The notes under the pieces were generated by a model. It was not told where the DNA came from. It did not search any database and saw nothing but the letters and a program-made list of their open reading frames with translations. The translations under genes were made by a program, and so were the position numbers. Below, piece after piece: positions 10,960-43,948 of a stretch of DNA of 64,000 bases. Source of the stretch: Candidatus Poribacteria bacterium. Its GTDB lineage: Bacteria; Poribacteria; WGA-4E; WGA-3G. The DNA lies in NCBI GenBank assembly GCA_965215265.1, contig OZ244048.1:1600001-1664000 (forward strand), in the 5' to 3' direction. The first letter of the stretch is position 1; every line of letters begins with the position of its first letter.

Positions 10960-12000
10960 TTAGAGCGACAAATCGCTGAGGTAATCGTTTATCAGCTTGG
11001 GTTGTCCGTCAAGCGTAGTCTCCATAGCAGCGATTACAAGGACGAAGCTCTTAATATTATCCTCAATCCGTGTATCAGAAGGTTCTCCTCCATCAAGCCA
11101 TTTCAGAAATTCATCAAACAGGTGCTGATGTGCATGATAAGGTATGGCGGGTGCCTCGTAGACTTCAGTTTGGCTGCCGGCGCGGTGGAGAGTCATCTGG
11201 TTTCCGCCGGCGATTTCAACTGCCCCTTCTTCAAATTCAGCGCGGTAGTGTTCCTGATTCCAGCAGTTGATGATGCCTGCGGAAGAGCTGTTCCCCTCAT
11301 AAGAGGTATGGACACCGTTATCCATCCGCATAACATAGAAACCGCTGGAGTAGTGTTGAAAGCTGGACCATTCTGGATTCCACCCGAACCCAATGAGCGT
11401 TTCACAATCGCCTCCGGAGAGGAAACGCAACATGTCCAAGTGATGAACGGAACCTTCAAAGAGCAGTCCAAAATCCATATCGTGTCGCCATGCTTTCCCC
11501 CAGGAGAGGTAGCGGCGATAATCGCAGGCGTAACGTCCGACAATATGCTGGAGTCGTCCGAGTCGTCCTTCATCTCGAATGCGAATCAGTTCCTGTTTAT
11601 TATCTGCATAACGATAATTTTGGATGATAGCACAGGGCAGTCCGGTTTTTTGTGCGGTGCGCACCATTGCCTTGGCGGCCTCCAGCGTGTCCGCAATCGG
11701 CTTTTCACAGATAACCGGCATTCCATTTTCCATCGCTGCAATGGCAGCCGGGCTGTGGAATTGCGGTGGCACAGCGATGCCACAGAAGTCTGCTTTTACG
11801 GTTGCACACGCCTCGTTAAAGTCTGTGAACAGTTGTGACTTGCTCAGTCCTAACGCTTCTCCTTGGGTTGACAACACGTCTGTATTCACATCCGCCAACC
11901 CGATAATTCTGATCCGGTCGCTGAAATTCTGCGTAAAATTTGCTATCCAGCCACCCGCCATACCGCTACCACCAATCATCAAACATGTTTTCTTTGCCAT
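10960..12000 (-). CDS. Gfo/Idh/MocA family oxidoreductase
   Basis: GGSGMAG, ICEKPIA, EGSVHHLD motifs; AGGAG RBS before ATG 12000. Confidence 0.92.
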   Translation of the reverse strand: MAKKTCLMIGGSGMAGGWIANFTQNFSDRIRIIGLADVNTDVLSTQGEALGLSKSQLFTDFNEACATVKADFCGIAVPPQFHSPAAIAAMENGMPVICEKPIADTLEAAKAMVRTAQKTGLPCAIIQNYRYADNKQELIRIRDEGRLGRLQHIVGRYACDYRRYLSWGKAWRHDMDFGLLFEGSVHHLDMLRFLSGGDCETLIGFGWNPEWSSFQHYSSGFYVMRMDNGVHTSYEGNSSSAGIINCWNQEHYRAEFEEGAVEIAGGNQMTLHRAGSQTEVYEAPAIPYHAHQHLFDEFLKWLDGGEPSDTRIEDNIKSFVLVIAAMETTLDGQPKLINDYLSDLSL

Positions 12001-12028
12001 AGTTTCTCCTATAAAAAGTATATTCGTA

Positions 12029-12379
12029 TTTTTTGTATATCTCCGTACCATCACCGCGTATGTAATGATCACTCGTGTGTAAATTTCGCCAGTGGCAGGA
12101 TAGGTAATCTTTTCTCATGGACAGAAAAAGAATACCTTTTACCTGCCACCCACTGGGAGCCATTCTAGGTTATGATTCTTCAATCACTTTCGTCAAGCAG
12201 CCAGATGCCACTAATCGATTCTGGATCTATTAGTGCAGCACCACAACGCCTGATGTGATGTTAACCCGTAAACAAAACTCGTCGCCCGCCCACCCAAATC
12301 CTTTGATGTTTAGAATCAATACATAAGAAACCTCTGGTTGGATCAAAAGGTGCCTACAATGGGCTCCTATCCTATAAAA
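12029..12379. repeat. Composite repeat: family A left arm with nested B (12091-12157), C motif and degenerate right arm
   Basis: The A sequence is interrupted at AAATTTCGCC by GTGGCAGGATAGGT...CCTGCCACCCACTGG and resumes GAGCCATTCTAGG; a GGGCTCCTAT end lies at 12361-12379. Confidence 0.85.
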
Positions 12380-12890
12380 TTGAACGTGCATTTCGCATCA
12401 GCTTGCTGCGCAAAATGTAATCGTCTTTTCCGCGTCTAACCCGTTCCAGTTCATCCTCAGTAACATCACGTCGAACTTTCGCCGGAACTCCCATTGCTAC
12501 GGTGCCGGGTGGAATTTCTTGTCCTTCGCGCACAAGCGTTCCAGCTGCAACGACTGCGCGCTCGCCAATCGTAGCACCTGTTAGCAGGATCGCCCCCATG
12601 CCGATAAGGGCTTCGTTGCCGATCTTGCAACTGTGGAGTATAGCACCGTGCCCAATGGTAACATCATCGCCGATAACACACGGAAGCTCCTTATCCATGT
12701 GAACAACAGTTCCATCTTGAATATTAGTACGACATCCAATGCAGATGGGTTCTAAATCACCTCTGAGGACGGTGTTAAACCAGATGCTTGATTGAGAGCC
12801 AATCGTTACCTTCCCAATAATCATCGCCCCTGGGGCGATAAAAACTGAGTGATGAACGTCTGGCGTTTTTCCTTCATATTCTATCAACAT
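12372..12890 (-). CDS. Gamma carbonic anhydrase family hexapeptide-repeat protein
   Basis: IWFNTVLRGD, TNIQDGTVVH, TIGHGAILH. Confidence 0.93.
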   Translation of the reverse strand: MLIEYEGKTPDVHHSVFIAPGAMIIGKVTIGSQSSIWFNTVLRGDLEPICIGCRTNIQDGTVVHMDKELPCVIGDDVTIGHGAILHSCKIGNEALIGMGAILLTGATIGERAVVAAGTLVREGQEIPPGTVAMGVPAKVRRDVTEDELERVRRGKDDYILRSKLMRNARSIL

Positions 12891-12935
12891 ATTTTTGGTC
12901 TTGCATTTTCTTTCATTGTTATTTTGGCGTATCCG

Positions 12936-13024
12936 TTTTTTCGTATATCTCCGTACGATCAACGCTTGTGTAATAATAACTCGTGTGTAAATCTCGTCAG
13001 ACCCGCTCTAGGTATAGTCTTTAA
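12936..13024 (-). repeat. Family A repeat, half-element
   Basis: TTTTTTCGTATATCTCCGTACGATCAACG...GTAAATCTCGTCAGA. Confidence 0.92.
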
Positions 13025-13088
13025 AAATCAAACAGCTTAGGTTTACAAGTTGTGCGTTCAAGCTGTCTACGGAGAGCAAGCGTCGCCT

Positions 13089-14780
13089 CTAAGATTGGGC
13101 GGCCAAGAGTTTCCGTAGATTCCGTATACCTATTTTGTAAAACAGAGCGAGTCCTCCAGCGATGCACACACTCACTACTCCAAGCCAAGCAACTTCTCCA
13201 ATGTGCAAAGTTATCATCGGCCCGCTTATCAGCACCAGATCTGCGAGAATCGTGAGCATGAAAGTTAAAGCACGTAATAGTGGCTGGGATCTAGCACGGA
13301 AATTCAATTCTGCCATCCAGGGCAGCGTGCCAATGGCGGTGTTCAAAGCACAAACCGCCGATAGGCTTAAAACAGGCGTTAATAGGAACGGTAGCCAGGC
13401 ATTTACCGGAATTTGGAGTAGATTCAAAGCAATTAGCGTCCAAAATTCAGTGTAAATGAACGCACAGAGCAACCCTGTCAGGAATTTACTCGTGTACGCC
13501 AATTCAGGTGTAACTGGAGTCACTTTCAACATCCACCAGGTTTTTGCCTCATCGTAAAACCCGCGGCAACTCAACCTGAAAGTGATGAGGATACTGTAAA
13601 TCATTATCTGCACACTAAGCGTGAGGGCATCGTTCACATCTTCAACGCTGCCTCGCGCAAGTAAGACACCGATATGGACTATTAAAAAGAGCGTCAGCAT
13701 AACGATGCCGATTATTCCGCCCCTATGCCTAATGAAAACCGTAAAGTCTTTTAACATCATTGCTCGTACGCGTTGAAGGAAAGTTCCACGCGCGAATGAA
13801 AAAAGCCCGGTAGTACGGGTAACACGTTTCACTGTGCGATGCCACACGCGCTTTGATTGCAAGCACAAGATATTTTCCCAGCCTTTTGGATAAATCTTTA
13901 TCGCTAGGAGCACTGTGAGACAAACAGACATGAAACTGCCGGCAATAAGAAGAGCCCCGTACTGCATCCGTGCACCTGCCGATTCATCTATCCAACTGAA
14001 CATCAGTCGCCCGAGCCATTGATGCGGATACCATGCAGTCCCTAACAGTTCTGCCTCTACGCCTACATTTCTGGTCGAAGCCCACTTCAAAAAGAACTGC
14101 TTTATCTGCAGTAGGTCGAATCCAACTTCGAAGTTGGGCACTAAAAGCATGAATCCCACTAAGAATCCGACGGCTACGCTTACTGCAGTAGCGAGCATCT
14201 TGAGTGTAGAAAGCAGCTGGCCGGATGAAAAGAATCGTGCTATCACCATCATGCAGATCGTCACATAACTCGCAATCAGAAGGAGTAAGCAAAAGCATGC
14301 CGGAACCAGCGTCACGTAAAAATGCCACGGGAGTTCGAATATTTGCCCGAGTGCGACCCACGGAGGTCCCAACAAGCAGAGCAGAGTCAGGAAACGGGTT
14401 CCAGTCATCTGAACGAACTTAACTCCGAAAATCACGACCTGCGGTATCGGTAGGGAACGTAATAGGACACTGTCTGCGGCTTCATAAAGCACATTCAGAG
14501 AAGTCTCCATCAACTCTTTGGCAACGATGACAGATCCAAATAGTATAAACCCGTTAATCACAGTGAACACTAGGGCAGGTGGGGCTTCGTCCATGCGTAA
14601 GGATGCGAAAATTTCGTTTCCTAACACCGATAGCACAAGGATGAAAATCAGGTAACCGATTGCCTTCAGAAAGTATTTACGCTGTGGTTGATGTTTAAGT
14701 TCATTTAGCCATCCTTGCCAACTTGCCTTGAGTAAAATTTTTGTTTGGTCAATTTTTGTATCTCTCCGTACCGTCATCAC
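13089..14780 (-). CDS. ABC exporter permease (multi-pass membrane protein)
   Basis: About 12 or more hydrophobic segments, LRSLPIP and MMLKDF motifs, adjacent to an ABC ATPase; the start codon lies within a family A repeat. Confidence 0.8.
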   Translation of the reverse strand: MMTVRRDTKIDQTKILLKASWQGWLNELKHQPQRKYFLKAIGYLIFILVLSVLGNEIFASLRMDEAPPALVFTVINGFILFGSVIVAKELMETSLNVLYEAADSVLLRSLPIPQVVIFGVKFVQMTGTRFLTLLCLLGPPWVALGQIFELPWHFYVTLVPACFCLLLLIASYVTICMMVIARFFSSGQLLSTLKMLATAVSVAVGFLVGFMLLVPNFEVGFDLLQIKQFFLKWASTRNVGVEAELLGTAWYPHQWLGRLMFSWIDESAGARMQYGALLIAGSFMSVCLTVLLAIKIYPKGWENILCLQSKRVWHRTVKRVTRTTGLFSFARGTFLQRVRAMMLKDFTVFIRHRGGIIGIVMLTLFLIVHIGVLLARGSVEDVNDALTLSVQIMIYSILITFRLSCRGFYDEAKTWWMLKVTPVTPELAYTSKFLTGLLCAFIYTEFWTLIALNLLQIPVNAWLPFLLTPVLSLSAVCALNTAIGTLPWMAELNFRARSQPLLRALTFMLTILADLVLISGPMITLHIGEVAWLGVVSVCIAGGLALFYKIGIRNLRKLLAAQS

Positions 14781-14967
14781 TTATGTCGCGATGTCTTATA
14801 TGTAAATCTCGTTTTTTCGTATCTCTCCGTACCATCAATGTCTATGTAATGATAGCTCGTGTGTAAATCTCGTTTTTTCGTATCTCTCCGTACCATCAAC
14901 GTCTATGTAATGATAGCTCGTGTGTAAATCTCGTCAGAACCGTTTGATGTATTGTATTGACTCTAAA
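14753..14967 (-). repeat. Three tandem family A units (about 59, 61 and 95 bp)
   Basis: Units begin at 14753, 14812 and 14873; the first two break exactly at AAATCTCG|TTTTTT. Confidence 0.95.
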
Positions 14968-14992
14968 CATCACCTTAAGCAGATGCGTCCTT

Positions 14993-15775
14993 TCATGCAT
15001 GACTACCTGGATGCTCTGTCAGATCAAAGAAGATATCCTCAAGTGTAGATATCTGTTCACGAGTGTCTGAGGCATGAATTCTACAAGCCTGTTTCTGCCG
15101 CAGTTCAGTTAAGGTTCCCAGGGCAATGAGTTTTCCTTGACTAATAATTCCGACGCGATTGCAGAGGCGTTCAGCGATGTCGAGAATGTGCGTTGTTAGA
15201 AACACAGTGCATCCTTCTTCACACTGTTCGCGTAGGATTTCACGAACAATGCGTGCACTTCTCGGATCCAGTCCACTTGTCGGTTCATCAAGGAAAAGGA
15301 TACGCGGGTGATGTACCAGGACTGAAATCAAGAGAATCTTCTTCTGCATCCCGTACGAATACCCTTTAATTAAATCATCTGCTGCATCGGTGAGTTCGAA
15401 TTGTTCAAGCAATTGCTCCATCTCATTTTCAGCTTGATGCGGTCCTATCTTATACAGATCGGCAATAAGTCGGACGAATTGCCTGCCCGTTAGGGCTTCA
15501 TAGAGTTGCGGTGTATCGGGCATGAGCCCTACAATTGATTTCGCTTGTAAGCTCTGGGTTTGAATATCATAGCCACCGAGTACTGCGGCACCAGATGTTG
15601 GGCGGAGGAGTCCTGTTAACATATTGATTGTGGTTGTTTTCCCTGCACCATTTGGACCGAGGAATCCGAAGATTTCGCCGGGGTCAACCTGCAGTGTCAA
15701 ACTATCCACAGCACACAATTTACCGAAGTACTTCGTGAGGTTGATTGTTTGAATCATCGGTTTTCCGTTCAGCAT
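14993..15775 (-). CDS. ABC transporter ATP-binding protein
   Basis: GPNGAGKTT, YSYGMQKK, LFLDEPTSGLD. Confidence 0.95.
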   Translation of the reverse strand: MLNGKPMIQTINLTKYFGKLCAVDSLTLQVDPGEIFGFLGPNGAGKTTTINMLTGLLRPTSGAAVLGGYDIQTQSLQAKSIVGLMPDTPQLYEALTGRQFVRLIADLYKIGPHQAENEMEQLLEQFELTDAADDLIKGYSYGMQKKILLISVLVHHPRILFLDEPTSGLDPRSARIVREILREQCEEGCTVFLTTHILDIAERLCNRVGIISQGKLIALGTLTELRQKQACRIHASDTREQISTLEDIFFDLTEHPGSHA

Positions 15776-15786
15776 ACCGCAAAACC

Positions 15787-16524
15787 CTAGTTTCCCAAGA
15801 TATCTTTTTTGAGTTCTGCAAGTGCGTCATCTAGATTTTTCGTATCCTGAGTTTTCGGTTTTTCGGTTTTATGCAAGGCTGTGTCTTGCTCGGGGTTCTG
15901 TTTTTCGGCTTTGCATCGGCAATCCGCGGATCTTGATATTTCATTCATATATTCTGCCGTTTCAGCTCTCGCTTCCAACTTTTCCACTATCTGCTCCATT
16001 TTCTCCAAAACGGTACTTGCGTTCTCTTTGCTGAATCCGGACAACACGTCATAAAATCGCGTCCGTGTATCTGCTTGTTTTTGACGGTAGTCGAGAGATT
16101 CTGCCCGGTCTACCATGCTTTGGAATTCGTGATAAAATTCGCGGAGTGCCATTTTGAGCTGTTCTACTGTCTCTGTATGTGCTGCGATTCGTTGCTGTAG
16201 GCGAGTTGCGCGGTTTTGACATATTCGCTTTTGCCGTAATGCCCTATGTGCTGCCTCAAGTTTTCCCTGTCGGAAAGCTATATCTGTCTTTTCTCGCCAT
16301 TCGCGTTCAGCCACCAGTGCATTTTGATAGTTTCTTTTTAGTTCTTCTTCTTTCGCCATTGCGCTGGCAGCGAGGTCTTTTGCAACGGAAAGCCGCTTTT
16401 TCATATTAACGAGAGTTTCATCCAAAACAGATAAAGACCCGTCCTGTGCTGCCAAAAACTTATCTATGTTTTCTTGCAATCTTTCTGCCACTTTCCGAAG
16501 TCGTTTCATTTTGATATTCTCCAT
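15787..16524 (-). CDS. PspA/IM30 family coiled-coil protein
   Basis: Long coiled coil with W..K...A...G.LEAA..AL..K pattern and C-terminal LDDALAELK. Confidence 0.75.
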   Translation of the reverse strand: MENIKMKRLRKVAERLQENIDKFLAAQDGSLSVLDETLVNMKKRLSVAKDLAASAMAKEEELKRNYQNALVAEREWREKTDIAFRQGKLEAAHRALRQKRICQNRATRLQQRIAAHTETVEQLKMALREFYHEFQSMVDRAESLDYRQKQADTRTRFYDVLSGFSKENASTVLEKMEQIVEKLEARAETAEYMNEISRSADCRCKAEKQNPEQDTALHKTEKPKTQDTKNLDDALAELKKDILGN

Positions 16525-16551
16525 ATTTTTATTTTAGATAATTTTCCGAAT

Positions 16552-16586
16552 AAGAATTCACCCCGCCCTGCGGGGAGAAAGTTCTT
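16552..16586. repeat. Family D short palindrome (divergent copy)
   Basis: AAGAATTCACCCCGC-CCT-GCGGGGAGAAAGTTCTT. Confidence 0.55.
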
Positions 16587-16929
16587 AACGGCGGTTTCAT
16601 TTTGAGGATCCTTGTATTTTTATTATACCGAATTTTCGAATTAGAATCAAGCGGATTTCAAGTTTCTGCAATCGGTTCGGTACACATGCAGCGGTTATGA
16701 CGGAATTATAGCAGTGTACCGATAATTTATTCAAATTTAGGGAGGCTGTGGATATATTTGGGCAAATTTCCCCTTGACTCGATTAAATTTTTCGTGTAGA
16801 ATTTAAAGAGTAGTTCTTCTGTAGTTGCCTGACTTCAAAACCGTTGTATTCGGCAACAACAGAAAATGTTATGTGACGGAAAGATTTACCGCTGTATAGC
16901 GACTTGTGCCTTAGCACCGCGCGGGAAAC

Positions 16930-18732
16930 TTGATGAAAATTCTGAATCTGAATCGAAAGCTCAGAAGTGCGAGGCGCCTCCCTGAGATTCTCAGTGTTTT
17001 CGCGAGACACGGTTTCGGCCATATTATCTCGCAAATTTTGAACCGAGGACGGACAACCCGTTTCAGCCTGACAAGGGGGCTGGCACGGAAAGTAAAGGAA
17101 GACATCGATCCTTACGAACGGAAGTGGTGGGATTTTAGGCGTAGCAAAAAAGCCGCATCGGATGCATCGAGCGGTGCCGGTACTTCGGGGCTATTATCGG
17201 TTCCAGAACGGATGCGACTGGCATTTGAAGAGTTAGGGCCGACCTTTGTTAAATTGGGGCAGATCCTTAGCACACGAGTAGATCTACTCTCTGAAATTGT
17301 TGGTCAGGAAGAGGCGTTGGAGTGGATTACCGAACTCAGGAAGTTGCAACAGCACACTCAGCCTTTCCCGTTTTCAGCCGTACGCAAGACGATTGAACAA
17401 GAATTCCAAAAACCACTTGAGGAGGTGTTTCTGACATTTGAGAAGCAGCCCTTCGCAGCAGCTTCTATCGCTCAAGTTCACTATGCGACGTTGTCTTCAC
17501 AATACGGGCAGGAACCTGTCGTGGTAAAAGTTCAACGGCCTCGTGTGGCTTCGCTCATTCAGACAGATCTCAACCTGTTGATGGAATTAGCTGAAAGGCT
17601 TGAGAGACACAGTCCAGAGAGCCATCTTTTCAAACCAACAGAATTGGTGCGTGAATTCTCACGTTCTCTTCGGAAAGAAATTGATTTTACGATGGAAGCC
17701 GCCAATACGGATACTTTCTACCACACCTTTGCAACATCAAAGCAGGTGAAGATTCCTAAAGTCTATTGGGAATTTACGAATCGCCGTGTTTTGACATTGG
17801 AACGGATTGACGGCATCTCCATCGACGAAATCGAGCAATTAGAGGAGCAGGGATTCGATCGGGCTCAACTTGCTGAAACAGTTGTCGAACTGTTTTATGC
17901 ACAGGTGCTCAATAATGGACTCTTCCACGCTGACCCGCATCCGGGGAACGTCTTTGTCTTAGAAGATGGACGGATTGGATTGGTGGATTTTGGCATGGTC
18001 GGTAGAATAAGTGGTGACATGTCCCGGCATATTTGTACCTGGTTTGGTGCAGTGTTAACTCGTGATGTAGATACTGTTGTTAGATGTTACATCCGGATGG
18101 GCATTCTCGACGATGAAACAGACGTTGCCTCGTTGAAATTAGAGATGAACGATTTTCTGGAACGCTACCTCAACATGCCTGCAGACCGGCACCGCATTGG
18201 CGACATGATTCATGAAGTTTTTCATGCATCTTTACGCCATCAAATTCATGTACCACCAGCGTTTCTCATGTTGAGCAAAACCGTTGCAACCGTTGAATCC
18301 GTTGTCATGAAACTCGCTCCCAATTTCAATATTGTGAAATTCAGTCAACCGTACGTCGCGCAGTTTCTATTCCAAAATTGGAGTAGTGACCGGTGGGCGC
18401 GGCAGTTCTCGGATTCAGTGGAAGATTTCACGGAGTTGGCACGCGATATGCCGCTCCAACTTCATCAAATCCTGCAAAAATTACAGCGCGGGACGCTCAA
18501 ATTTGGTCTGGATCTTCTCAGTTTAGAAGTGGTGCTTAAGGCTTTCGACCGGGGTATCAATCGCATCGCGTTCAGTTTGATTATCGCTTCACTCATTATC
18601 GGTTCATCGTTTATCCTACAAAATGTGACACTTTGGGAGTGGAAATTTTTCCTCGGAATTATGGGTTATGTGACAGCGACGTTCTTTGGATTCGGGTTAG
18701 TAATTTCGATTTTACGTTCGGGACGATTTTAG
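16930..18732 (+). CDS. AarF/UbiB (ABC1) family protein kinase-like protein
   Basis: LGPTFVKLGQ, AAASIAQVH, VVKVQRP, FHADPHPGN, VDFGMVG, C-terminal TM helices. Confidence 0.95.
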   Translation: MMKILNLNRKLRSARRLPEILSVFARHGFGHIISQILNRGRTTRFSLTRGLARKVKEDIDPYERKWWDFRRSKKAASDASSGAGTSGLLSVPERMRLAFEELGPTFVKLGQILSTRVDLLSEIVGQEEALEWITELRKLQQHTQPFPFSAVRKTIEQEFQKPLEEVFLTFEKQPFAAASIAQVHYATLSSQYGQEPVVVKVQRPRVASLIQTDLNLLMELAERLERHSPESHLFKPTELVREFSRSLRKEIDFTMEAANTDTFYHTFATSKQVKIPKVYWEFTNRRVLTLERIDGISIDEIEQLEEQGFDRAQLAETVVELFYAQVLNNGLFHADPHPGNVFVLEDGRIGLVDFGMVGRISGDMSRHICTWFGAVLTRDVDTVVRCYIRMGILDDETDVASLKLEMNDFLERYLNMPADRHRIGDMIHEVFHASLRHQIHVPPAFLMLSKTVATVESVVMKLAPNFNIVKFSQPYVAQFLFQNWSSDRWARQFSDSVEDFTELARDMPLQLHQILQKLQRGTLKFGLDLLSLEVVLKAFDRGINRIAFSLIIASLIIGSSFILQNVTLWEWKFFLGIMGYVTATFFGFGLVISILRSGRF

Positions 18733-18772
18733 GATTTTTTGTATTGGTGTTAGATTGAGAATTGCCTGATTT

Positions 18773-18836
18773 TGGCAGGATAGGTATTCTTTGTCTGTCC
18801 ATGAGACAAGAAACCTTTTCCTGCCAATCTATAGAT
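18773..18836. repeat. Family B palindrome
   Basis: TGGCAGGATAGGTATTCTTTGTCTGTCCATGAGACAAGAAACCTTTTCCTGCCA. Confidence 0.9.
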
Positions 18837-18989
18837 CTGATAGAATTATGCCGTGTTAAATAGTGCAGTCAACCATGTACTGCAATTCACGTCCGTTCGC
18901 GGACTGTAGTTTTTAATGCTACGCCAATCAATACGGAATCGTTTTCTCAATAGATACATCACGCCATTGTTAGGTAAAAACAAAAAAAA

Positions 18990-19126
18990 GTGGCAGGTTC
19001 GGTATTCTTGTCTCTCCTGCAAGGAGAGACAAAGTGGCGAGATAGGTATTCTTTCTCTGTCCATGAGAGAAGATAACCTTTTACTCGCCACCCACTGGGA
19101 TAACCTTTTCCTGCCACCCACTGGGG
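18990..19126. repeat. Family B element nested within another family B element
   Basis: Outer GTGGCAGG...GGAGAGACAA is interrupted by GTGGCGAG...CTCGCCACCCACTGG and resumes GATAACCTTTTCCTGCCACCCACTGGG. Confidence 0.88.
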
Positions 19127-19133
19127 ATCTATT

Positions 19134-19553
19134 ATGGGAGTTTACCTTGGATTAGACCTGGGTGATACACGAATTGGGGTTGCCCTGAGCGACGAACTCG
19201 GTGTGACAGCACATCCGTTATGTACCCTGACTCGGAAAAACCGAAAAGTCGATCTAGTAGCAATTTCAGATCTGGTTTCTATTCATAAGGTTGAACGCGT
19301 TATTATCGGATTACCTATTTCACTTGATGGTTCAATCGGACCCCAGGCACAGAAAGTGCAAAAGTTTGCGCAACGTTTGGGGAAGGTTATCAAAATTCCA
19401 ATTGAACTTTGGGATGAACGGTTCACTACAGCAGAAGCAGAAGCAGTTTTGCAGGAATTAAACAAGAATTCCAAGCAGCAGAAGGATATCATAGACCAGG
19501 TTGCCGCGATGATTATCCTTAACGAATATTTGGAAAATCAGCACGATAGCTAA
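19134..19553 (+). CDS. ruvX: Holliday junction resolvase-like / pre-16S rRNA nuclease RuvX (YqgF)
   Basis: LGLDLGDTRIGVALSD, IIGLP, WDERFTT, IDQVAA. Confidence 0.95.
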   Translation: MGVYLGLDLGDTRIGVALSDELGVTAHPLCTLTRKNRKVDLVAISDLVSIHKVERVIIGLPISLDGSIGPQAQKVQKFAQRLGKVIKIPIELWDERFTTAEAEAVLQELNKNSKQQKDIIDQVAAMIILNEYLENQHDS

Positions 19554-19651
19554 CTACGTAGACAGTGATAAACCGGATAAAGTGTCTAAAATTGAAAGGG
19601 GTGCGTTCTTAACTTCGCAACTTTCTTGATAGCAGAAAGAAGGCATGCACT

Positions 19652-20773
19652 ATGATGCATATTCAATCAGGACATTTAAGAAGAACTTGGCTTCAAATCG
19701 GTAGATGGACGCTTTGTTGCCTTGGAGGGCTCTGCTTTATTGCTATTCTCATTGGTTGGTTCTACCTGGCTCCTATCAATAAAGCGGACTCATCGACAAT
19801 AGAAAAGTTTGTTAACTTCAATGTCGTAACTGGCAGCAATTCGCGGACAATAGCGAAGCAGTTGGCTGCTGAGAAACTCATTCGGAGCGAACTTGCTTTT
19901 CTGGTTGCGCTCCGCTACTGTGGAAACGATCGACACTTAAAAGCAGGTAGTTATCAGCTGCAGCAGAGCATGTCCTTACTGCAAATCCTCAATGAACTTC
20001 AAAAAGGACAGGTCAAGTTAAAGAGTTGGACGGTCCCGGAAGGACTCACTGTCCGAGATATTGCTGGGCTCTGGGAAGCTGCCGGGTTTGGTACGGCGGA
20101 AGCGTTTCTTCGTGCCACGAAATCAGCCGACTTGCTCCGAGGTTCAGGCCCAGATAGGGATTCAAATTATATGTCAGTAGAAGGATACCTGTTCCCCAAC
20201 ACCTACAAGTTCGCTAAAGGCACACCTGTGAAGACAGTTGTCGAAATGATGCTTGCTGAATTCAACCGGCAATGGGATGAAACATTAAGAGAAAAAGCCA
20301 AGGACTTAAACATGACACGCCATGAAGTTGTGACACTCGCTTCGATTATTGAAAAAGAAGCACAATCCGGAGCTGAACGACATCGCATCGCGAGTGTCTT
20401 CCACAACCGTCTCAAGCGGAACTGGCGCCTTCAGGCAGATCCTACGGTAATTTACGCGTTAGAGCACGCGTCCGACTATGCAACAGAAACTTACGATGAC
20501 AGCAAGGAAATTATTCCAATGCACAGCCAGGAAAAACGTCCTCTCACAAAGGCTGACCTCAAAGTGGATTCGCCATACAATACTTACTTGTATAAAGGAT
20601 TACCTCCCGGGCCGATTAGTAACCCAGGCATCGCTTCAATCAGAGCAGCATTGCATCCCGAAAAAACCAACTATCTCTACTTCGTTGCAATTGGGAACGG
20701 CCTCCATCATTTTTCAAAGACACTTTCTGAACATAATAGGATGATCCGAGAAATCAGGCGAAAAGCGCGATAA
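19652..20773 (+). CDS. mltG: Endolytic transglycosylase MltG
   Basis: N-terminal TM, EGYLFPNTY, LASIIEKE, LQADPT, SPYNTY, GLPPGPISNPG, YLYFV. Confidence 0.96.
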   Translation: MMHIQSGHLRRTWLQIGRWTLCCLGGLCFIAILIGWFYLAPINKADSSTIEKFVNFNVVTGSNSRTIAKQLAAEKLIRSELAFLVALRYCGNDRHLKAGSYQLQQSMSLLQILNELQKGQVKLKSWTVPEGLTVRDIAGLWEAAGFGTAEAFLRATKSADLLRGSGPDRDSNYMSVEGYLFPNTYKFAKGTPVKTVVEMMLAEFNRQWDETLREKAKDLNMTRHEVVTLASIIEKEAQSGAERHRIASVFHNRLKRNWRLQADPTVIYALEHASDYATETYDDSKEIIPMHSQEKRPLTKADLKVDSPYNTYLYKGLPPGPISNPGIASIRAALHPEKTNYLYFVAIGNGLHHFSKTLSEHNRMIREIRRKAR

Positions 20774-20813
20774 TTATGTCCCGGCGGGGCAGTCGAAAGG
20801 AAATCACAACAAA

Positions 20814-22139
20814 ATGGAAACGGCTGAGTCACAGCAGACACTTCAGAATCAAACAACATTTTCAGGCAAAGGCTTAATGCTCGGTGCACCTGTTACATTA
20901 ACCTTGAAACCGGCACCTGCAGATGCCGGCATCATATTTAGACGTGTGGATATAGAGGGTGCACCTGAAATCAAGGTGTTTCCGGAAAATTGGGTTGACC
21001 TGCTTCCACGGTGCACCAGTTTACAAAGCAGGAATGCAGCTGGGCAGAACAATCCATCCACTGCGACGGTGAGTAGCGTTGAACACATTCTATCTGCTCT
21101 CGGTGGCCTCGGAGTCGATAACGCAATAGTCGAGCTTGACGCACCTGAGCCGCCCGCACTGGATGGCAGCGCATTGCCTTACGCAGAGCAAATTCAGAAG
21201 GTCGGGGTTATCCGACAAGAAAATACCCACCGACGCTTTATAGAAATATCTGAACCGTTTGTCATATCAGAAGATAATAGACAACTCGTTCTGCTACCGG
21301 CTGATGCCTTCCAAGTCACATTCATTTATGCCCATCCCCAAACCACCCCGCAAGTCGCCACTTTCCAAATAACCCCAGAATCCTATATTCGTGAGATTGC
21401 GCCTGCGAGAAGTTTCTGTTTCGCGAGTGAAATAGATGCCCTTCAAGCACTCGGCATCGGTAAAGGGGCGAGTTATGACAACGTGCTTGTTATAGACGCG
21501 GAGAATGCTACGAGTCAGGCACTTCGATTCGAAGACGAGTACGCCCGCCATAAAATGCTAGACCTGATTGGCGATCTCTACCTTGCAGGCTGTCTCCCGA
21601 AGGCACACGTCATCGCATTGCGCACTGGGCATACATTCCATGCGAAACTTGTTCAGGCGCTTGCAGAAAAAGGTTATCTGCAGCCATCATCTATTCGATC
21701 TCCGGTTGAAGTGAAGGAGATTTACCGCATCCTTCCACACCGGCATCCGATGTGTCTATTGGATAGAGTGCTTGAGTATGAAGATGGGAAGTATGCTATC
21801 GGTATTAAGAACGTGACATATAATGAGCGGGTGTTCGAGGGACATTTTCCTGTCCAACCGGTTATGCCGGGTGTTTTACAAGTTGAGGCCCTCGCCCAAC
21901 TTGGTGCTTGGTTAGTACTTCAGGAAATCGGGAAAGAAGGGCAGTTAGGTTACTTCCGGACTATCAACAAAGCAACATTCCGGCGGGCTGTCATTCCGGG
22001 TGACCAGCTCCGTTTGGAAATTGAGGTGGTACAACGACGGAGCACCTTGGCACGCATTAAAGGAGCGGCGTATGTCGGCGATTCTCTCGCAACCGAAGCT
22101 GAACTGTCAATCGCGCTCGCACCAACTGAACGCGAGTAA
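20814..22139 (+). CDS. lpxC/fabZ: Bifunctional LpxC deacetylase / FabZ dehydratase
   Basis: VEHILSAL and HKMLDLIGDL (LpxC); LPHRHPMCLLD and GHFP...MPGVLQVEALAQ (FabZ). Confidence 0.95.
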   Translation: METAESQQTLQNQTTFSGKGLMLGAPVTLTLKPAPADAGIIFRRVDIEGAPEIKVFPENWVDLLPRCTSLQSRNAAGQNNPSTATVSSVEHILSALGGLGVDNAIVELDAPEPPALDGSALPYAEQIQKVGVIRQENTHRRFIEISEPFVISEDNRQLVLLPADAFQVTFIYAHPQTTPQVATFQITPESYIREIAPARSFCFASEIDALQALGIGKGASYDNVLVIDAENATSQALRFEDEYARHKMLDLIGDLYLAGCLPKAHVIALRTGHTFHAKLVQALAEKGYLQPSSIRSPVEVKEIYRILPHRHPMCLLDRVLEYEDGKYAIGIKNVTYNERVFEGHFPVQPVMPGVLQVEALAQLGAWLVLQEIGKEGQLGYFRTINKATFRRAVIPGDQLRLEIEVVQRRSTLARIKGAAYVGDSLATEAELSIALAPTERE

Positions 22140-22217
22140 CCGGTTTTAATTTCAGGAGTCAGGCATCCAAGCCCCGGCTTCTAACGAAAATTCGTACAAA
22201 CTGAAAGAGGTACATCT

Positions 22218-23042
22218 GTGCTACAGCCAAACATTCACCCGACCGCGATAATCTCTCCAAAAGCCAGATTGGACGAAGACGTTCACGTCGGTCCCTACAG
22301 TCTTGTTGGCGACTATACGTATATCGGGCGAGGAACCCAGATCGGTGCGCACGTTCAGATTGGCGACTGGACAACCATTGGTGAAGAATGTCAGATTTTT
22401 TTTGGCGCGACTCTCGGGAATCCATCGAAAGATCTGAAGTACAGAGGTGGACGCAGTTATCTCAAAATCGGTAACCGGAATACGTTACGCGAATATGTCT
22501 CTATCTCCAGATCTTCCTTTGAGGAAGGTGCCACTGTTATTGGGGATGGCAATCTATTCATGAATTGGGTGAACTTGGCACATGATACCGTTGTTGGTAA
22601 CCGCACGATTATGGCGAACTTTGCTACGCTGGCGGGGCACGTAGAAATTGAAGACGACGTTCGCTTAGGTGCCCATGCAGCGTTACATCAGTACGTGCGC
22701 GTCGGCAAAATGGCGATGGCAGGCGGATTCTCAAAAATTGTTCAGGACATCCCGCCCTTTGCCCTTTCAGCGGGACAACCGGCTCGAGTTCGCGATTTAA
22801 ACCGTCTCGGTATCCGGACCTCACAAATCAATCCCTTGGCGCGTCTCACACCTGAAACCCGTGTCCTCCTCAAAAAAGCGTTCCGCATTCTGTTTCGTTC
22901 GGGGATACCGCTAAAGCATGCTGTTAATCAGGTCAGACAAGAATTAACATCAGACCCGGAAGTTGAATATTTACTCTGTTTTATTGAGACATCCAAACGC
23001 GGCATCGGATTTAGCCATCCGAATCGGCCACTTGTCGGGTGA
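22218..23042 (+). CDS. lpxA: UDP-N-acetylglucosamine acyltransferase
   Basis: IHPTAII, DLKY.G, LREYV, AHD, LAGHVEI, HQYVRVG hexapeptide repeats. Confidence 0.95.
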   Translation: MLQPNIHPTAIISPKARLDEDVHVGPYSLVGDYTYIGRGTQIGAHVQIGDWTTIGEECQIFFGATLGNPSKDLKYRGGRSYLKIGNRNTLREYVSISRSSFEEGATVIGDGNLFMNWVNLAHDTVVGNRTIMANFATLAGHVEIEDDVRLGAHAALHQYVRVGKMAMAGGFSKIVQDIPPFALSAGQPARVRDLNRLGIRTSQINPLARLTPETRVLLKKAFRILFRSGIPLKHAVNQVRQELTSDPEVEYLLCFIETSKRGIGFSHPNRPLVG

Positions 23043-23137
23043 AGCCGGTTTTGCGGTGTTTGCCTTAGCGTAACACTCGGCAAAATTTCTCCGAGGCATC
23101 TTAGCCAGCAGTCCATTCGTAAAAGGAAACCGAAGCT

Positions 23138-23938: not shown

Positions 23939-23973
23939 ATGTAAGAACGGATGCTTCGTATTTATAGGAAAGT

Positions 23974-24038
23974 GTGGCAGGATAGGTATTCTTTGTCTGT
24001 CCATGAGACAAGAAACCTTTTACCTGCCGCTCACTGGG
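23974..24038. repeat. Family B palindrome after lpxI
   Basis: GTGGCAGGATAGGTATTCTTTGTC...GACAAGAAACCTTTTACCTGCCGCTCACTGGG. Confidence 0.9.
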
Positions 24039-24637: not shown

Positions 24638-24710
24638 CCCAATGGGTGGCAGGTAAAAGGTATTCTTATCTCTCCTGAAAGGAGAGATAAAGAATACCTC
24701 TCCTGCCACT
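24638..24710. repeat. Family B palindrome
   Basis: GTGGCAGGTAAAAGGTATTCTTATCTCTCC-TGAAA-GGAGAGATAAAGAATACCTCTCCTGCCAC. Confidence 0.9.
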
Positions 24711-38946: not shown

Positions 38947-39876
38947 CTATTTATACACGTCCCACGGCACCGGTTTCCCAATTAATGCTCCCAATTTGCG
39001 GACATCAGTTTTGTAGTAATTGACTAAGCGTTGCCGAGTCTCTTCTGAAAGGTAGACATCCTCGCTTGACTGCGTGTTTAGCCGGAGATAGACGGGCTCA
39101 ATTGTCTTTCGTATCATCCGCAACGGGTTGTGAATCATCGGTTTATTATGTGTCCACTGCCGCAGTTGAAAACGGAACCACCTATATTTCCGGTGGAGCG
39201 CCGAATTCCGCATCGTTTCTGTGCGATTAGCAACTTTAAAGACGTAATCCTTATAAAATTCCGCATCCATACCTGCAAAGCGACATACGTCTGCCAAAAC
39301 TTTGAAGGGTTGTGTGGCAATATCCTCGTAAAAGAGAATATGGATGCGCGCAGCATTAAATTTCTCAAAGTACTGCTTCAAATAGATAGCATAGCATCCC
39401 TGCTGAAGTGTTTGCAAGTGTTGTTCTTTTACGCTGTTCTCCATCTTGAACAGTTGTTCTACGTACGCATCAAAACTGAGGGTTTGTGCTAATTTCCCGA
39501 TCTGTTTAGCGAACCGGTACCACGAGATTAAGCGTGAAATCGGTTCGCGGAGACTGAAAACGAGTTTAGCGTGCGGAAGAAATGCCGCAATTCTTCCGCA
39601 AGCGCTCGTGCAATATAGATAATCCGGGGTTGATTCAAGCCGAAGTTGGTTCTCATTACCCGACGGAAATAAGAGATTGTATTTTTCAACATCCCCGCTG
39701 TATCGGTACTTTGACGGAAGTGGATAAGTAGCATCAAGAAAGAAGCGGGTTTCCTTGTAAGTTGCGGCACAAATTGCCGGATGATCGGCGAGGTAAGCGA
39801 ACAGTGATGTCGTCGCCGCCTTTGTTGTTCCCCCGATAATGAGATAGGGGTAATTGCCGACACTGGCGTTCTTCAA
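38947..39876 (-). CDS. Sulfotransferase (Sulfotransfer_1 / HS3ST-like)
   Basis: IIGGTTKAATTSL, KETRFF, ESTPDY, LREPISRLIS. Confidence 0.92.
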   Translation of the reverse strand: MKNASVGNYPYLIIGGTTKAATTSLFAYLADHPAICAATYKETRFFLDATYPLPSKYRYSGDVEKYNLLFPSGNENQLRLESTPDYLYCTSACGRIAAFLPHAKLVFSLREPISRLISWYRFAKQIGKLAQTLSFDAYVEQLFKMENSVKEQHLQTLQQGCYAIYLKQYFEKFNAARIHILFYEDIATQPFKVLADVCRFAGMDAEFYKDYVFKVANRTETMRNSALHRKYRWFRFQLRQWTHNKPMIHNPLRMIRKTIEPVYLRLNTQSSEDVYLSEETRQRLVNYYKTDVRKLGALIGKPVPWDVYK

Positions 39877-41189
39877 TCTGGTGCCCCCAATATTCTAACT
39901 CCTGTTTTGCTGAGCAAGTAGGTTAAGTTAGCAACAGCGATGAGTGCAGCTAGCGAAACAGAGAGTGCGATGCCAATAAGTCCCCACGTCGTTGCCAGTA
40001 AGGCCGCTATTCCGAAGTTTAAAACCGCCATCGTTACCATATTTCTAAAGACAAGGCGATAAGCCTTTTGTGCGTAGAGTCCTGCATTCAGAACCGGAAT
40101 CATACATGAAAAAACGATACCGAGCCCCAGCCAAACGAGGAGCGGTGATATCTGCTGCGCGTAGTGCTGAGCAGAAAAAAAAGATTCAACTATTTTCGGC
40201 TGGCCCAGCAGCAGCAAAAGCGCCGGAATCCCAACCCATACAGCAGCGCGCACGTTTCTATGGAGCGTTCGTGCCAGCCTCGATTTATCTGTTGCTACAT
40301 CATGCTGTGCCATCTCCGGCAAACCCGTTGTGGCGATGCTGATACCGATAACTGTTTGTATTGCAGAAAAGATGCGGAAAGCACTGTTGTAGCGTGTAAT
40401 CGCTCCGGTTCCGAGTCTACCTACCAAATACACCTCAACCAACAATCCAGAAATCACCCGCCGAATCGCGAAGCCGAGCGTCGGCAAGGAGATTGTGTTT
40501 TTTAAAGATTGCAATATATCTCTGGGGGACCACGCCAATTGGTAACGGTGCCCCGTTCGATAGATTCCAAAGTACAAAAGCCCGAAATATCCGAGAAACC
40601 CTACTGTATAAGCTATAGCTACCCACCGCGCGAGGGGACCTATATGCCAAAACAGCAAAAATGTTATTGTTGCCAATCCCGCAGGCAGTGCATTTCGCAA
40701 GGCAACGAGTCTGAAACGTTTTTGGCTATTCAAAAAGGCACCAAGTATCGTACTGCCGCAACCGAAGATAATGAGGGGTGCACAAAGCCGTAGAAATATT
40801 ATCATCTCTGACCTCGCTTCTGGCAATCCTCGTAGCAATCCGGATGCTATCCACGGGGCAACCGCTTCAACGAGAAGCATCATTCCAACCCCGATACAGA
40901 GCATGAAGTTAAGCAAGCAGTTCGTCCAACGTTGATATGCAGCACGGCTTAATGTCTTTTCTTGTTCAAGAAACAGCGGAACAAGACTAAATTTAGCACC
41001 TTCTCGGATAACGGTGTCGACTAACAGCGTGACCTTTAAGGCAGTAACCAAGGCATCGGCAGTGCTACTTAGGTTGAACCGGGTCGGAATCAATTTGACA
41101 TGTACGAGAAGTCCGAAACCCATTCCGCCTAGGGTAATTATCATTACCCATGAAGTCGGTAGTTGCAAGAAGCGTTTGTAGAATGCCAT
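39873..41189 (-). CDS. MurJ/MviN-like (MOP superfamily) flippase
   Basis: Multi-TM; ADA, LVP.F, GAFLNSQKRF, ISIAT..LP, LYAQK motifs. Confidence 0.8.
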   Translation of the reverse strand: MAFYKRFLQLPTSWVMIITLGGMGFGLLVHVKLIPTRFNLSSTADALVTALKVTLLVDTVIREGAKFSLVPLFLEQEKTLSRAAYQRWTNCLLNFMLCIGVGMMLLVEAVAPWIASGLLRGLPEARSEMIIFLRLCAPLIIFGCGSTILGAFLNSQKRFRLVALRNALPAGLATITFLLFWHIGPLARWVAIAYTVGFLGYFGLLYFGIYRTGHRYQLAWSPRDILQSLKNTISLPTLGFAIRRVISGLLVEVYLVGRLGTGAITRYNSAFRIFSAIQTVIGISIATTGLPEMAQHDVATDKSRLARTLHRNVRAAVWVGIPALLLLLGQPKIVESFFSAQHYAQQISPLLVWLGLGIVFSCMIPVLNAGLYAQKAYRLVFRNMVTMAVLNFGIAALLATTWGLIGIALSVSLAALIAVANLTYLLSKTGVRILGAPD

Positions 41190-41451
41190 TTTTTGTATAT
41201 TTCAGCCCTGTAACGCTTTTTTGTATATTTCCGTACCGTCAACGCTTATGTCGTGGGTACTCGTGTGTAAATCTCGCTCGTGGTCGGCAGGAAAAGATAA
41301 TCTTTGTCTCTCCTTGCAGGAGAGACAAGAAAACCTTACCTGCCGATCAGAGGCTTCTTATGTATTGAATCTAAACCTCGGAAGGCTCTGGCGAGGTTTG
41401 TAAAGTTTTTATCACAACATAGAGCGTTGATGTGCTACAGTATATGAAAAA
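41190..41451. repeat. Family A truncated terminus plus full element with nested B (41284-41346)
   Basis: Terminus abuts the ATG at 41189; TCGGCAGG...CCTGCCGA is inserted at the CTCG/CAGAG core. Confidence 0.9.
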
Positions 41452-41498
41452 GCGGTTTTAGTAATGTACAGCATGATAGTAGCTTACCGGATAAAAAA

Positions 41499-42494
41499 CT
41501 ACTTCCACCCCTCTGGCAGATTTTTGTGAATCTCAATATCAGTAAACCCAGTGGGAGGACGTGCGCCAATTGATTTCACCCATGTCGCCATTCTGTTCAA
41601 TCCTTCTTCAATAGAGACTTCAGCGTTAATCCCAAAAACCTTGCGAAATTTATCATGCGAACAATACGCGTGTTTCACCTCTTCTCTAGCCCGAAGGTGG
41701 ATTATCGGCACCTCTTTCCCCATCACTTTCATAACCAGTTCCGCTAACTCGTTAACACTCACCGGTTTATCGGAACCGACGTTAAAAATTTGTCCCGATG
41801 CGGCTGGTATGTCTACCGAGTGTGCAATGTGCGGGGCAACATCGGCAATATGCGTGTAAGCCCGGGTCTGCTCACCATCTCCAAATATGCGTAACGGTTC
41901 ATCACGCAGAATGTTATTCATGAAGATGCCGATAACATTTCGATACTTATCACTGATATTTTGTCCTTCGCCATATACGTTATGGGGACGGAAGATTGTG
42001 TAATCAAGGTCAAAGAGTCGTTTAGAGACAGCGAGTTCTTGTTCTACCGCATATTTGGCAATTCCGTAGGGATCCTCTGGCATAGGTATTAGTTCTTCAT
42101 GCATCGGCAATTGGTTTGTCCCATACACTGCAATGGAAGAGCTGAACACAAAATGCTTGACGTTGTAATTTACCGCTGCGTTTATCAGATTGACACTGCC
42201 GATGAGGTTGTTTTGATAGTTAAATCGCTTGATAAAGTGGCTCAGGCCCTCGGCAGCATAAGCTGCAAGGTGATAGATATAACTGAATTCGTACTGTTCA
42301 CAGAGTTGATTAACCAGCGATACATCCAAGATACTGCCATCGACGAACGTCGCCTCGGGGTTCATGTTCTCATGAAAACCACCGCTCAAGTCGTCAAGCA
42401 CGACAACCTGATGATTCAGATCGCGTAGAAGTTCGTCAACGACGTGTGCACCCATAAAGCCTGCACCGCCGGTAACCAATGAGTTTTTTTTCAT
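41499..42494 (-). CDS. NAD-dependent epimerase/dehydratase
   Basis: VTGGAGFMG, HLAA, SSIAVYG, PYGIAK. Confidence 0.95.
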   Translation of the reverse strand: MKKNSLVTGGAGFMGAHVVDELLRDLNHQVVVLDDLSGGFHENMNPEATFVDGSILDVSLVNQLCEQYEFSYIYHLAAYAAEGLSHFIKRFNYQNNLIGSVNLINAAVNYNVKHFVFSSSIAVYGTNQLPMHEELIPMPEDPYGIAKYAVEQELAVSKRLFDLDYTIFRPHNVYGEGQNISDKYRNVIGIFMNNILRDEPLRIFGDGEQTRAYTHIADVAPHIAHSVDIPAASGQIFNVGSDKPVSVNELAELVMKVMGKEVPIIHLRAREEVKHAYCSHDKFRKVFGINAEVSIEEGLNRMATWVKSIGARPPTGFTDIEIHKNLPEGWK

Positions 42495-42551
42495 TTTTCG
42501 TCTCTCTCCGTACCATAAAGGTTTATATTTTGTTAATGCCTGTATAAATCC
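42495..42551 (-). repeat. Family A truncated unit filling the entire intergenic gap
   Basis: Sense strand reads GGTACGGAGAGAGACGAAAA-ATG. Confidence 0.88.
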
Positions 42552-43760
42552 TCACAAAAATTGTTGATAGACGCCCATAATTTTTTGGTAATGAATGTCT
42601 GCATTAAACTCGGTTTCCATTTTCAGACGACCGGCGACTCCCATTTCTATTGCTTCGGTTTTATTTTCGTACATCCACAACAATTTTTCACGCAACGCCT
42701 CTGTTCCACCGGAGGGAACGAGAAAGCCATCAACACCATCCATAATTAACTCAGGAATCCCGCCAATGTCAGCACCGATGACCGGTTTCCCATACGCATA
42801 CGATTCTAAAACCGACATCGGACAATTTTCATACCATTCGGAGGGCAACAGTGTGCATAAACTATTCCGAATCAATTCACGGAGTTCATCACCCTGTTTA
42901 AATCCCAGCAGTTGAATATGAGTGCAGTCGTTCTGTCTTACGATTTTCTGAACTTCGGGCATCGCCTCGCCGTCACCGACAATATAGAGCGGTACCTCCT
43001 TCAATGGGGCCGCTGCTTCTATCAACGTCAAAATTCCTTTACTCCGATGCAACCGACCGAAATAGAGTAGGTAGTCTCCACCTATAAAACTCGGTGTGAT
43101 GTCCCTTACATCAACAAAGTTATGAACGGTCGAGATTTTCGCCTGAGGAATGCCATGTGCAATCATTTTCTTTCGCAAGAAGTGCGACACGGAGATGAAA
43201 TGGTCAAATTTATCAACTGCCCCCAGCATGCGTGAGAAATAAGCTTCTGTAACGCTTAGTGCTGTACGCGCGAATGAATTCCTGTTACACCGCTTCGGAA
43301 GTGCACGCCAAAAGTGTTTGCCGGCACATGCCTCGCAAATCTCATCGTTCGACAGATGACTATAGACAGGACATGTCAATTTATACTCGTGCAATGTCTG
43401 AATCAGTGGAATACCTGCTTTTTTGAGAACCCCCAAAATTGAGGCGGTGATTTTACCATAGTAGATATGAAAATGTGCAATATTCACGTCGGTGTCATCT
43501 AATAGCCGTCGCATCGATTTAACCGCCTCGCCTGAGTATAAAAACCGGATGGGATCGCCCACCCCTGGATGCTCAAAATCAGCCCCGCGTGGAAAATAGC
43601 GAGACCACTCTGTCGGTTCGTTTGCCGGACTAGAGGCTGTAAACGGAACAACGCGGTGCCCATGCTTTTGCAACAAATCTGCCATCGTAAAAAAGTACCG
43701 GTCAGAACCGCCACGGATATGGTAGTTTTGTGAAACATTCAGAATTGTCAGCATAGGCAT
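42552..43760 (-). CDS. Glycosyltransferase family 4
   Basis: GGSDRY, TLHEYKL.CP, GRL...KG, PSEWYENCPMSVLE. Confidence 0.93.
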   Translation of the reverse strand: MPMLTILNVSQNYHIRGGSDRYFFTMADLLQKHGHRVVPFTASSPANEPTEWSRYFPRGADFEHPGVGDPIRFLYSGEAVKSMRRLLDDTDVNIAHFHIYYGKITASILGVLKKAGIPLIQTLHEYKLTCPVYSHLSNDEICEACAGKHFWRALPKRCNRNSFARTALSVTEAYFSRMLGAVDKFDHFISVSHFLRKKMIAHGIPQAKISTVHNFVDVRDITPSFIGGDYLLYFGRLHRSKGILTLIEAAAPLKEVPLYIVGDGEAMPEVQKIVRQNDCTHIQLLGFKQGDELRELIRNSLCTLLPSEWYENCPMSVLESYAYGKPVIGADIGGIPELIMDGVDGFLVPSGGTEALREKLLWMYENKTEAIEMGVAGRLKMETEFNADIHYQKIMGVYQQFL

Positions 43761-43761
43761 A

Positions 43762-43948
43762 TTCGTATATCTCCGTCCCATCAACGCTTTTTCGTCTATT
43801 GGAGCCCTATCAAGGCGTAGGTATTGCTAAATCTTGTGTACATCTCGTCGGAGCCGCTTTATGTTTAGAATCATAGCATAAGAAAGCTCTGACGAGATGT
43901 ACATCGGAGTTAACAAAACATAAACATGATAGGGCACCTGTATACGAA
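43762..43948. repeat. Family A truncated terminus plus full element (43788-43948)
   Basis: TACATCTCGTCGGAG / CTCTGACGAGATGTA inverted core; GGGCACCTGTATACGAA end. Confidence 0.92.

Follow-up and report, generated by a model that had tools for sequence, protein, structure and literature searches.

Between 12 and 45 kb of the window, i.e., the 64,000 nt from position 1,600,001 to 1,664,000 of the single 4.83-Mb contig of a sponge-associated Poribacteria species (genome G000), lies a gene cluster encoding, among others, a Gfo/Idh/MocA protein (Gfo), a hexapeptide protein resembling gamma-CA, an ABC permease, sulfotransferases, Wzi, an epimerase and a GT4 protein. Pfam domains support the gene names: GFO_IDH_MocA for Gfo, hexapeptide repeats for the gamma-CA-like protein, PF16949 adjoining an ABC ATPase for the permease, Sulfotransferase_3 from residue 13 for the sulfotransferase at 32927-34012, and GT4. 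Copies of a short repeat lie in the gaps of this cluster (Table 1). The repeat is absent from G001, a comparison genome of the same genus (single contig, 4.0 Mb), of which 80 kb and additional targeted loci were compared. G001 is collinear with the window, coding DNA differs by ~20% between the two genomes, and all gaps of the cluster are larger in G000 through repeats (for instance 321 vs 1, 286 vs 18 and 238 vs 109 nt).

We followed the repeat by its 21-nt terminus, ATGGTACGGAGATATACGAAA, counting copies with up to 3 mismatches. The window contains 18 of them, 17 on the minus and one on the plus strand, vs none in 100 dinucleotide-preserving shuffles, and G000 as a whole contains 328, among them 46 exact ones. 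Aligning the 328 copies yielded a unit of ~65-70 nt with a decaying 5′ end and a sharp 3′ end directly past an A-run (+22/23). The terminus contains, in this order, a TAA in frame 0 (the frame of the repeat ATG, which in the consensus follows 9 nt later), a TGA overlapping the ATG (TGATG), a GGAG and an A/T-rich run; one frame is open across the whole unit and reads …LRRDLH…DGTEIYKK. The 10 bases from the GGAG on (e.g., within 12031-12051) presumably resemble the phage-derived ribosome-binding region widely used in expression vectors.

A preliminary description of this DNA, made from the letters alone, had placed the repeat in frame with five genes. All five fusions are present, with the N-termini V-MVRRYTKN (Gfo), (TTG)IVRRYTKK (gamma-CA-like), (GTG)MTVRRDTK (permease), MVLKYTKK (sulfotransferase 32927-34012) and (TTG)MGRRYTN (GT4), but the start details of two copies had to be corrected. 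MIVRRYTKK had been read from a repeat ATG at the gamma-CA-like gene, where the copy actually has ATC, so that the sole possible start there is a TTG three bases upstream. At the permease, ATG 14777 does lie in the repeat terminus; it belongs to the GTGATGACGG variant, and the core position is ACG. A sixth in-frame copy, at 30914-30934 upstream of Wzi, runs into a TAA. As described, Gfo, the gamma-CA-like gene and GT4 possess native downstream starts: the same ATG is used in G001. Because it is kept in all three, the upstream extension need not be translated.

For the permease and the sulfotransferase at 32927-34012, the description had recognized no further start before the first conserved element. 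Indeed, no ATG other than that of the repeat precedes the conserved sequence in either gene, and the native ATG seen in relatives is gone. In the permease-proximal repeat unit, GTG 14780 and ATG 14777 precede ACGGTACGGAGAGATACAAAA; neither ATG, GTG nor TTG, which we counted as canonical starts throughout, occurs between this GTG-ATG and the first transmembrane helix (TM1), and the next canonical in-frame codon falls inside TM1. In all nine relatives inspected, the orthologue begins with M and 5-9 residues, followed by K(I/V/L)LL(K/R)A(S/D/G/A)(W/L)QGW. DNA homology between G000 and G001 starts at ATTGACCAA, directly after the A-run of the repeat, and both ATG codons of the G001 permease are absent from G000.

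The sulfotransferase has an ATG start in seven of nine relatives, reading MKENKPLFVVGNSRSGTT (MKENKPLFVVG) in G001, MQDKILFVVG in one and M(I/V)F(V/I)VG in five, and in the remaining two TTG is the sole start present. Where G001 has ATGA, G000 has the A-run of the repeat. As claimed, the repeat ATG is the only ATG before the conserved sequence; the one other canonical codon in frame is a GTG at codon 16, inside the first beta-strand. The 3′ end of the gene is affected as well: its stop TGA (32929-32927) lies where the next repeat cluster begins, and this cluster supplies the stop (TTTTTGA) at unchanged protein length and abuts the intact native ATG of the downstream sulfotransferase gene. The comparison of orthologue N-termini suggested in the preliminary description thereby backs both cases through repeat-free relatives. 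Both junctions recur with identical start codons in DNA contigs from four runs of one study, which are possibly not independent of the assembly; these contigs break at repeats.

Table 1. Repeat-associated features in the window; coordinates are window positions.
Feature	Position	Strand	Remarks
Terminus in frame with Gfo/Idh/MocA	12031..12051	-	Native ATG 12000 with AGGAGA upstream, kept as in G001; N-terminus MAKKTCLMIGGSG in G000, MKTCLMIGGSG in G001
Terminus (ATC variant) in frame with hexapeptide/gamma-CA-like gene	12939..12959	-	Native ATG 12890 kept; N-terminus MLIEYEGKTPDV in G000 and G001
ABC-associated membrane protein (PF16949), 563 amino acids	13089..14780	-	No canonical start other than the repeat-borne GTG/ATG ahead of KILLKASWQGW and the first transmembrane helix
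Three tandem repeat units, 61-nt period	14752..14942	-	Between ABC ATPase stop (14993) and permease
Repeat cluster, 321 nt	32614..32933	-	Splits the ATGA stop/start overlap of two sulfotransferase genes in G001
Sulfotransferase (Sulfotransfer_3 from residue 13), 361 amino acids	32927..34012	-	Start in one repeat, stop in the next cluster
Terminus variant ATGGTACTGAAATATACGAAA	33992..34012	-	ATG 34012 opens the sulfotransferase reading frame; in-frame TAA 9 nt upstream
Two repeat units read through in frame	35804..36015	-	Between ATG 36015 and the conserved hydrophobic N-terminus of a 591-amino-acid protein
Repeat cluster in the open frame (…LRRDLH…DGTEIY…)	38354..38643	-	Inside sulfotransferase 37641-38819
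Terminus 1 nt before epimerase ATG (42494)	42496..42516	-	Abutting class, out of frame
Terminus in frame with GT4	43761..43781	-	Native ATG 43754 kept; junction ATG 43760; N-terminus MLTILNVSQNY in G000 and G001

Genome-wide, the relation of the repeat to gene starts was assessed with our own codon-usage-based gene calls, a crude set of 3,903 genes covering 86% of G000, and the frame and abutment counts refer to those 199 of the 328 copies that have a same-strand gene directly downstream. Relative to the repeat ATG, 61 of these genes lie in frame 0, 60 in frame 1 and 78 in frame 2 (chi-square p=0.21). A chance-level in-frame frequency, which the preliminary description had named as refuting its reading, was observed (61 of 199, binomial p=0.45) and refutes any adaptive reading. 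The frame remained open for at least 300 nt downstream in 32 (frame 0), 22 (frame 1) and 58 (frame 2) of the 328 copies, i.e., frame 0 accounts for 32 of 112 open cases (p=0.32); the frame-2 excess arises partly because 12 copies lie inside long open reading frames (ORFs). With the ATG frame at chance, start donation thus appears as an occasional by-product for which the repeat is not enriched.

Among the 32 frame-0 ORFs, the repeat start is the only canonical one in four, and two others were left undecided, one of them 135 amino acids long (G000:1915987). According to our own tally, the remaining 26 mostly possess a canonical start a few codons past the repeat. Besides the permease and the sulfotransferase, the four include a 715-amino-acid membrane protein (G000:1546656) and a PorV-like outer-membrane protein (G000:4241431). 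Four relatives of the former start with ATG, and G001 with TTG, 11-20 residues before a conserved (S/P)(P/S)ITG motif that precedes TM1. Relatives of the PorV-like protein begin with MR(N/R)(I/T)(I/T)Y…; in G000 its signal peptide begins with MMVLKYTNY, the n-region being coded by the repeat. In these two proteins, the next canonical in-frame codon is reached only past TM1 or within the core of the signal peptide. The four genes, with 65-84% identity to their closest orthologues, are all intact, and in each of them homology to the orthologues runs upstream of the next canonical codon. Among the 26, two further candidates (G000:1271518 and 4210011) were rejected, as they keep a native ATG in agreement with their orthologues; for the other undecided candidate, at G000:4355307, relatives match only from residue 36-75. 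A different situation was found for GcvH, the H protein of glycine cleavage (G000:C1:243385, plus strand, locus L011:1501). Here, TTG TTT CCA follows directly after the repeat at the place of ATG TTT CCA in relatives, and the repeat ATG is in frame 7 codons upstream of the TTG.

Judged by these comparisons, four conserved genes, two of them in the window, have lost their native ATG and retain no canonical start besides that of the repeat; in most in-frame cases, the native start is still there. We consider a capture of start codons that is filtered by selection and has no dedicated function the best reading of these observations, with a probability of about 0.7. In this scenario, the terminus in question would be the 3′ end of a species-specific, mosaic intergenic repeat that invades short gaps of packed operons, mostly in sense orientation. 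Such an invasion would erase the ribosome-binding site and start codon of a gene, and a working gene would result only where the repeat ATG happens to be in frame. In captured genes, the repeat ATG would then be the present start and the MVRRYTK-like residues the N-terminus. Translation of these genes probably begins at the repeat ATG without a Shine-Dalgarno (SD) sequence, and the insertion itself may have caused the loss of the native ATG. If repeat-borne starts are used, the N-terminal peptides (M)TVRRDTKIDQTK, (M)VLKYTKKQNK, (M)VPRYTKNQQ and (M)MVLKYTNY are expected.

Several points weigh against this interpretation. An SD-like motif is missing within 20 nt upstream of the repeat start of both the permease and the sulfotransferase. 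On the supporting side, an SD core was found in 900 of 1,629 well-defined genes, vs 7.6% in a control window; ~45% of these genes thus lack it, and SD-less initiation is normal in G000. The permease has in-frame ATT codons usable by non-canonical initiation, and a start at the codon-16 GTG would make the sulfotransferase 2-3 residues shorter than its shortest orthologue. Given the ~20% coding divergence from G001, the loss of the native ATG codons may have preceded or followed the insertion instead of resulting from it. Finally, the genome-wide statistics depend on the crude gene calls.

One objection to start capture is that the fusions are artefacts of longest-ORF calling, and that all genes, including the permease and the sulfotransferase, start natively or downstream, without any repeat-coded residues. 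For Gfo, the gamma-CA-like gene and GT4 this holds, as it does for the two rejected candidates elsewhere in the genome; GcvH with a TTG at its native start position agrees with it, and so do the 26 frame-0 ORFs that are neither dependent on the repeat start nor undecided. Longest-ORF calling places a VRRYTK-like N-terminus on 25 of the 3,903 genes. As a general explanation, we nevertheless regard it as very improbable, because the next canonical codon lies inside TM1 or beta-strand 1 of the two window genes, after TM1 or inside the signal-peptide core of the other two, and orthologue homology extends upstream of all those codons. Probably, most of the VRRYTK-like N-terminal extensions are not made and at least four are.

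The terminus might, on the other hand, have evolved as a portable cassette for translation initiation at operon junctions, similar to REP2, IR or MIRU, with start donation as part of its function. Its TAA and TGA would end two upstream frames, the third being open, and the GGAG would serve as SD sequence, with an A-rich spacer at a fixed distance of 12 nt from the next ATG. The repeat ATG would act as a replacement start or open an 8-codon relay ORF (MVRRYTKK) whose stop overlaps the ATG of the gene, re-coupling translation across the insert. With junctions selected in this way, the element would be able to spread through packed operons, and even into coding sequence, while the genes survive. 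This is attractive in view of the 58 of 199 sense copies that are followed by the first in-frame start within 0-10 nt of the 21-mer, which is an ATG in 56 cases and lies at exactly +2 in 28. At the +2 spacing, the repeat ATG opens an 8-codon ORF in 34 of 230 copies with an intact ATG; in 21 of the 230, the frame-0 ORF ends in a TGA that shares bases with the ATG of an ORF spanning 80 or more amino acids, and 13 of these 21 frame-0 ORFs are the 8-codon MVRRYTK(K/N/D). A related terminus lacking the GGAG (B-type; GGGCT…TATACRAAA; 271 copies in G000) abuts starts less often (within the corresponding 4 nt, 10 of 136 vs 43 of 199; Fisher p=0.0004) and often keeps a native SD sequence downstream. 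The orientation of the copies in co-directional gaps points in the same direction, with 194 sense vs 53 antisense (79% sense).

We nonetheless consider a selected junction cassette unlikely. Apart from the ATG frame being at chance, a start at +2 puts the GGAG of the repeat 16 nt before the ATG of the gene. This position belongs to the tail of what native genes show: of 1,630 without repeats, 85-114 have a GGAG beginning at each of the positions -13 to -10, where the distribution peaks, vs 23 at -16. The repeat's own ATG has no SD sequence, and one open frame of three over ~21 codons is expected by chance according to our own estimate. A scan limited to sigma-70-type promoters gave 25 sites vs 26.8 ± 5.5 in shuffles and none within the repeat termini, and a promoter-carrying repeat was rejected for this lack of enrichment. 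The abutment itself is explicable by a preference for A-rich targets or by the very short gaps of packed operons. The spacing data are consistent with the terminus being tolerated in the role of a replacement leader, at a distance other than the preferred one, and an A-rich insertion target could also contribute to the abutment of starts.

The repeat is also read through inside genes. Of 19 copies flanked on either side by 200 nt or more of open frame, 18 are in the one fully open frame (frame 2). The sulfotransferase at 37641-38819 contains 67 extra repeat-coded codons (…NLRRDLHQNPQNINIDGTEIDKK…DDGTEIYKK…) in a loop that measures 27 residues in G001. Similarly, ~70 repeat-coded codons follow ATG 36015 of the 591-amino-acid protein (34240-36015), which has no Pfam match. 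This ATG overlaps the upstream stop as ATGA, and G001 has ATGATG at that junction. Alternative starts are one repeat-borne ATG and one TTG, the latter located in a GGAG-less terminus and leading to a normal-looking signal peptide; as the repeat units lie between ATG 36015 and the conserved N-terminus, the N-terminus is repeat-coded whichever start is used. Elsewhere in the genome (G000:C1:1078036-1094492, minus strand), several open-frame copies belong to very long ORFs in which the frame is open upstream for as many as ~1,800 codons.

A profile built from the units matched 581 times in G000 (E ≤ 0.01). In addition to the copies in co-directional gaps, gene bodies contain 33, and convergent and divergent gaps contain 30 and 18, respectively. 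Tandem copies with a 61-nt period occur in places, and the repeat often forms the right arm of a fold-back pair. By eye, several gaps hold an inverted and a sense unit separated by a spacer, and inverted unit pairs flanking gaps were seen in this way, for example, at 43757-43948 and 33991-34277; many copies are single or tandem sense units. When filled junctions of G000 were compared by eye with empty ones of G001, they had the appearance of gap replacement without convincing target-site duplication. The 5′ part of some units contains a further hairpin module (GGCAGG … TCTCTCC-loop-GGAGAGA … CCTGCC; 41304-41328, 32810-32870 and 12060-12110, minus strand), which at 41304-41328 scores terminator-like. 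A single unit forms a weak stem of 7 pairs (-2 kcal/mol) without compensatory changes, i.e., by that test it is not a structured RNA, and we rejected this possibility; scanning the whole window against Rfam at gathering thresholds gave no match. We also rejected a REP element driven by a RAYT, since the RAYT/Y1 transposase family PF01797 had no match in G000, vs control matches in 6 of 14 genomes.

Among the genomes searched, the repeat is confined to one species. A degenerate pattern with up to 2 mismatches found 316 copies in G000 and none in each of 30 relatives, including G001, and the exact pattern had no match in the representative genomes of 185,579 species. The 21-mer occurred in only four metagenome contigs, which we took as chance matches because of their ~30% G+C and otherwise lacking similarity to G000. 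Within the literature on Poribacteria intergenic repeats, judged by title and abstract, we found no earlier description of this family.

Two further differences and similarities to G001 were noted in the region. Approximately 6 kb located between the epimerase and GT4 orthologues of G001 are missing from G000 (window 42498-42554). Of the sigma-70-like sites in the region, the best (TTGACA-17-TAAACT, 45076-45104, minus strand) lies between two repeat copies in native DNA conserved with G001 and may serve the gene cluster as its promoter.

Mycobacterial interspersed repetitive units (MIRU) occur in tandem arrays in sense orientation. The Poribacteria repeat is like them in its 61-nt tandem units, its predominant sense orientation and its TGATG/ATGA overlaps with flanking genes, and unlike them in its copy number (~330-580 vs ~40-50), its mosaic build, its fold-back arms and its presence inside coding sequence. 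With BIME/REP clusters and MITEs such as Correia and Nezha it shares a species-specific occurrence and an intergenic, mosaic arrangement of short modules or inverted arms; in contrast to REP/BIME, G000 has no Y1/RAYT (PF01797), and the unit forms a weak stem instead of a stable G+C-rich hairpin. In the review by Delihas (2011, PMC3184786), Neisseria REP2 and Borrelia IR are described as containing a promoter together with a ribosome-binding site and with an ATG fused to ORFs, and MIRU as units of 40-100 bp between the genes of polycistronic operons with small ORFs and ends overlapping adjacent genes. The same text cites Ogata 2000, Croucher 2011 and Hot 2011 for other repeats that lengthen genes at the 5′ or 3′ end or are located within them, and it describes RPE of Rickettsia and BRE of Bordetella as in-frame insertions in protein-coding genes that are translated as extra peptide segments. 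The Poribacteria repeat is like REP2 and Borrelia IR-A/IR-B in being dispersed, lying directly upstream of genes and lending a 5′ leader with GGAG (putative ribosome-binding site) plus an ATG fused to ORFs, a likeness by described mode of action and not a sequence family. It differs from REP2 (120-150 bp, ~25 copies, with promoter, as given there) by its unit of ~65 nt, its hundreds of copies, the absence of sigma-70-like enrichment and the frequent tandem or fold-back arrangement. Its copies read in frame within genes resemble RPE and BRE; RPE are mainly intragenic, whereas the Poribacteria repeat is mainly intergenic.

Start replacement by a repeat is therefore a well-documented kind of repeat behaviour and no new mechanism, as the review (PMC3184786) contains precedents for repeats that carry a ribosome-binding site and ATG, or are translated within genes, from Neisseria, Borrelia, Mycobacterium, Rickettsia and Bordetella. 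What the Poribacteria case adds are clean before/after pairs: next to a same-genus genome that is free of the repeat, a putatively selfish repeat can be seen overwriting start, stop and leader, and conserved genes stay intact. In practice, these results are of use in the annotation of Poribacteria genomes, where longest-ORF calls add VRRYTK-like N-termini.

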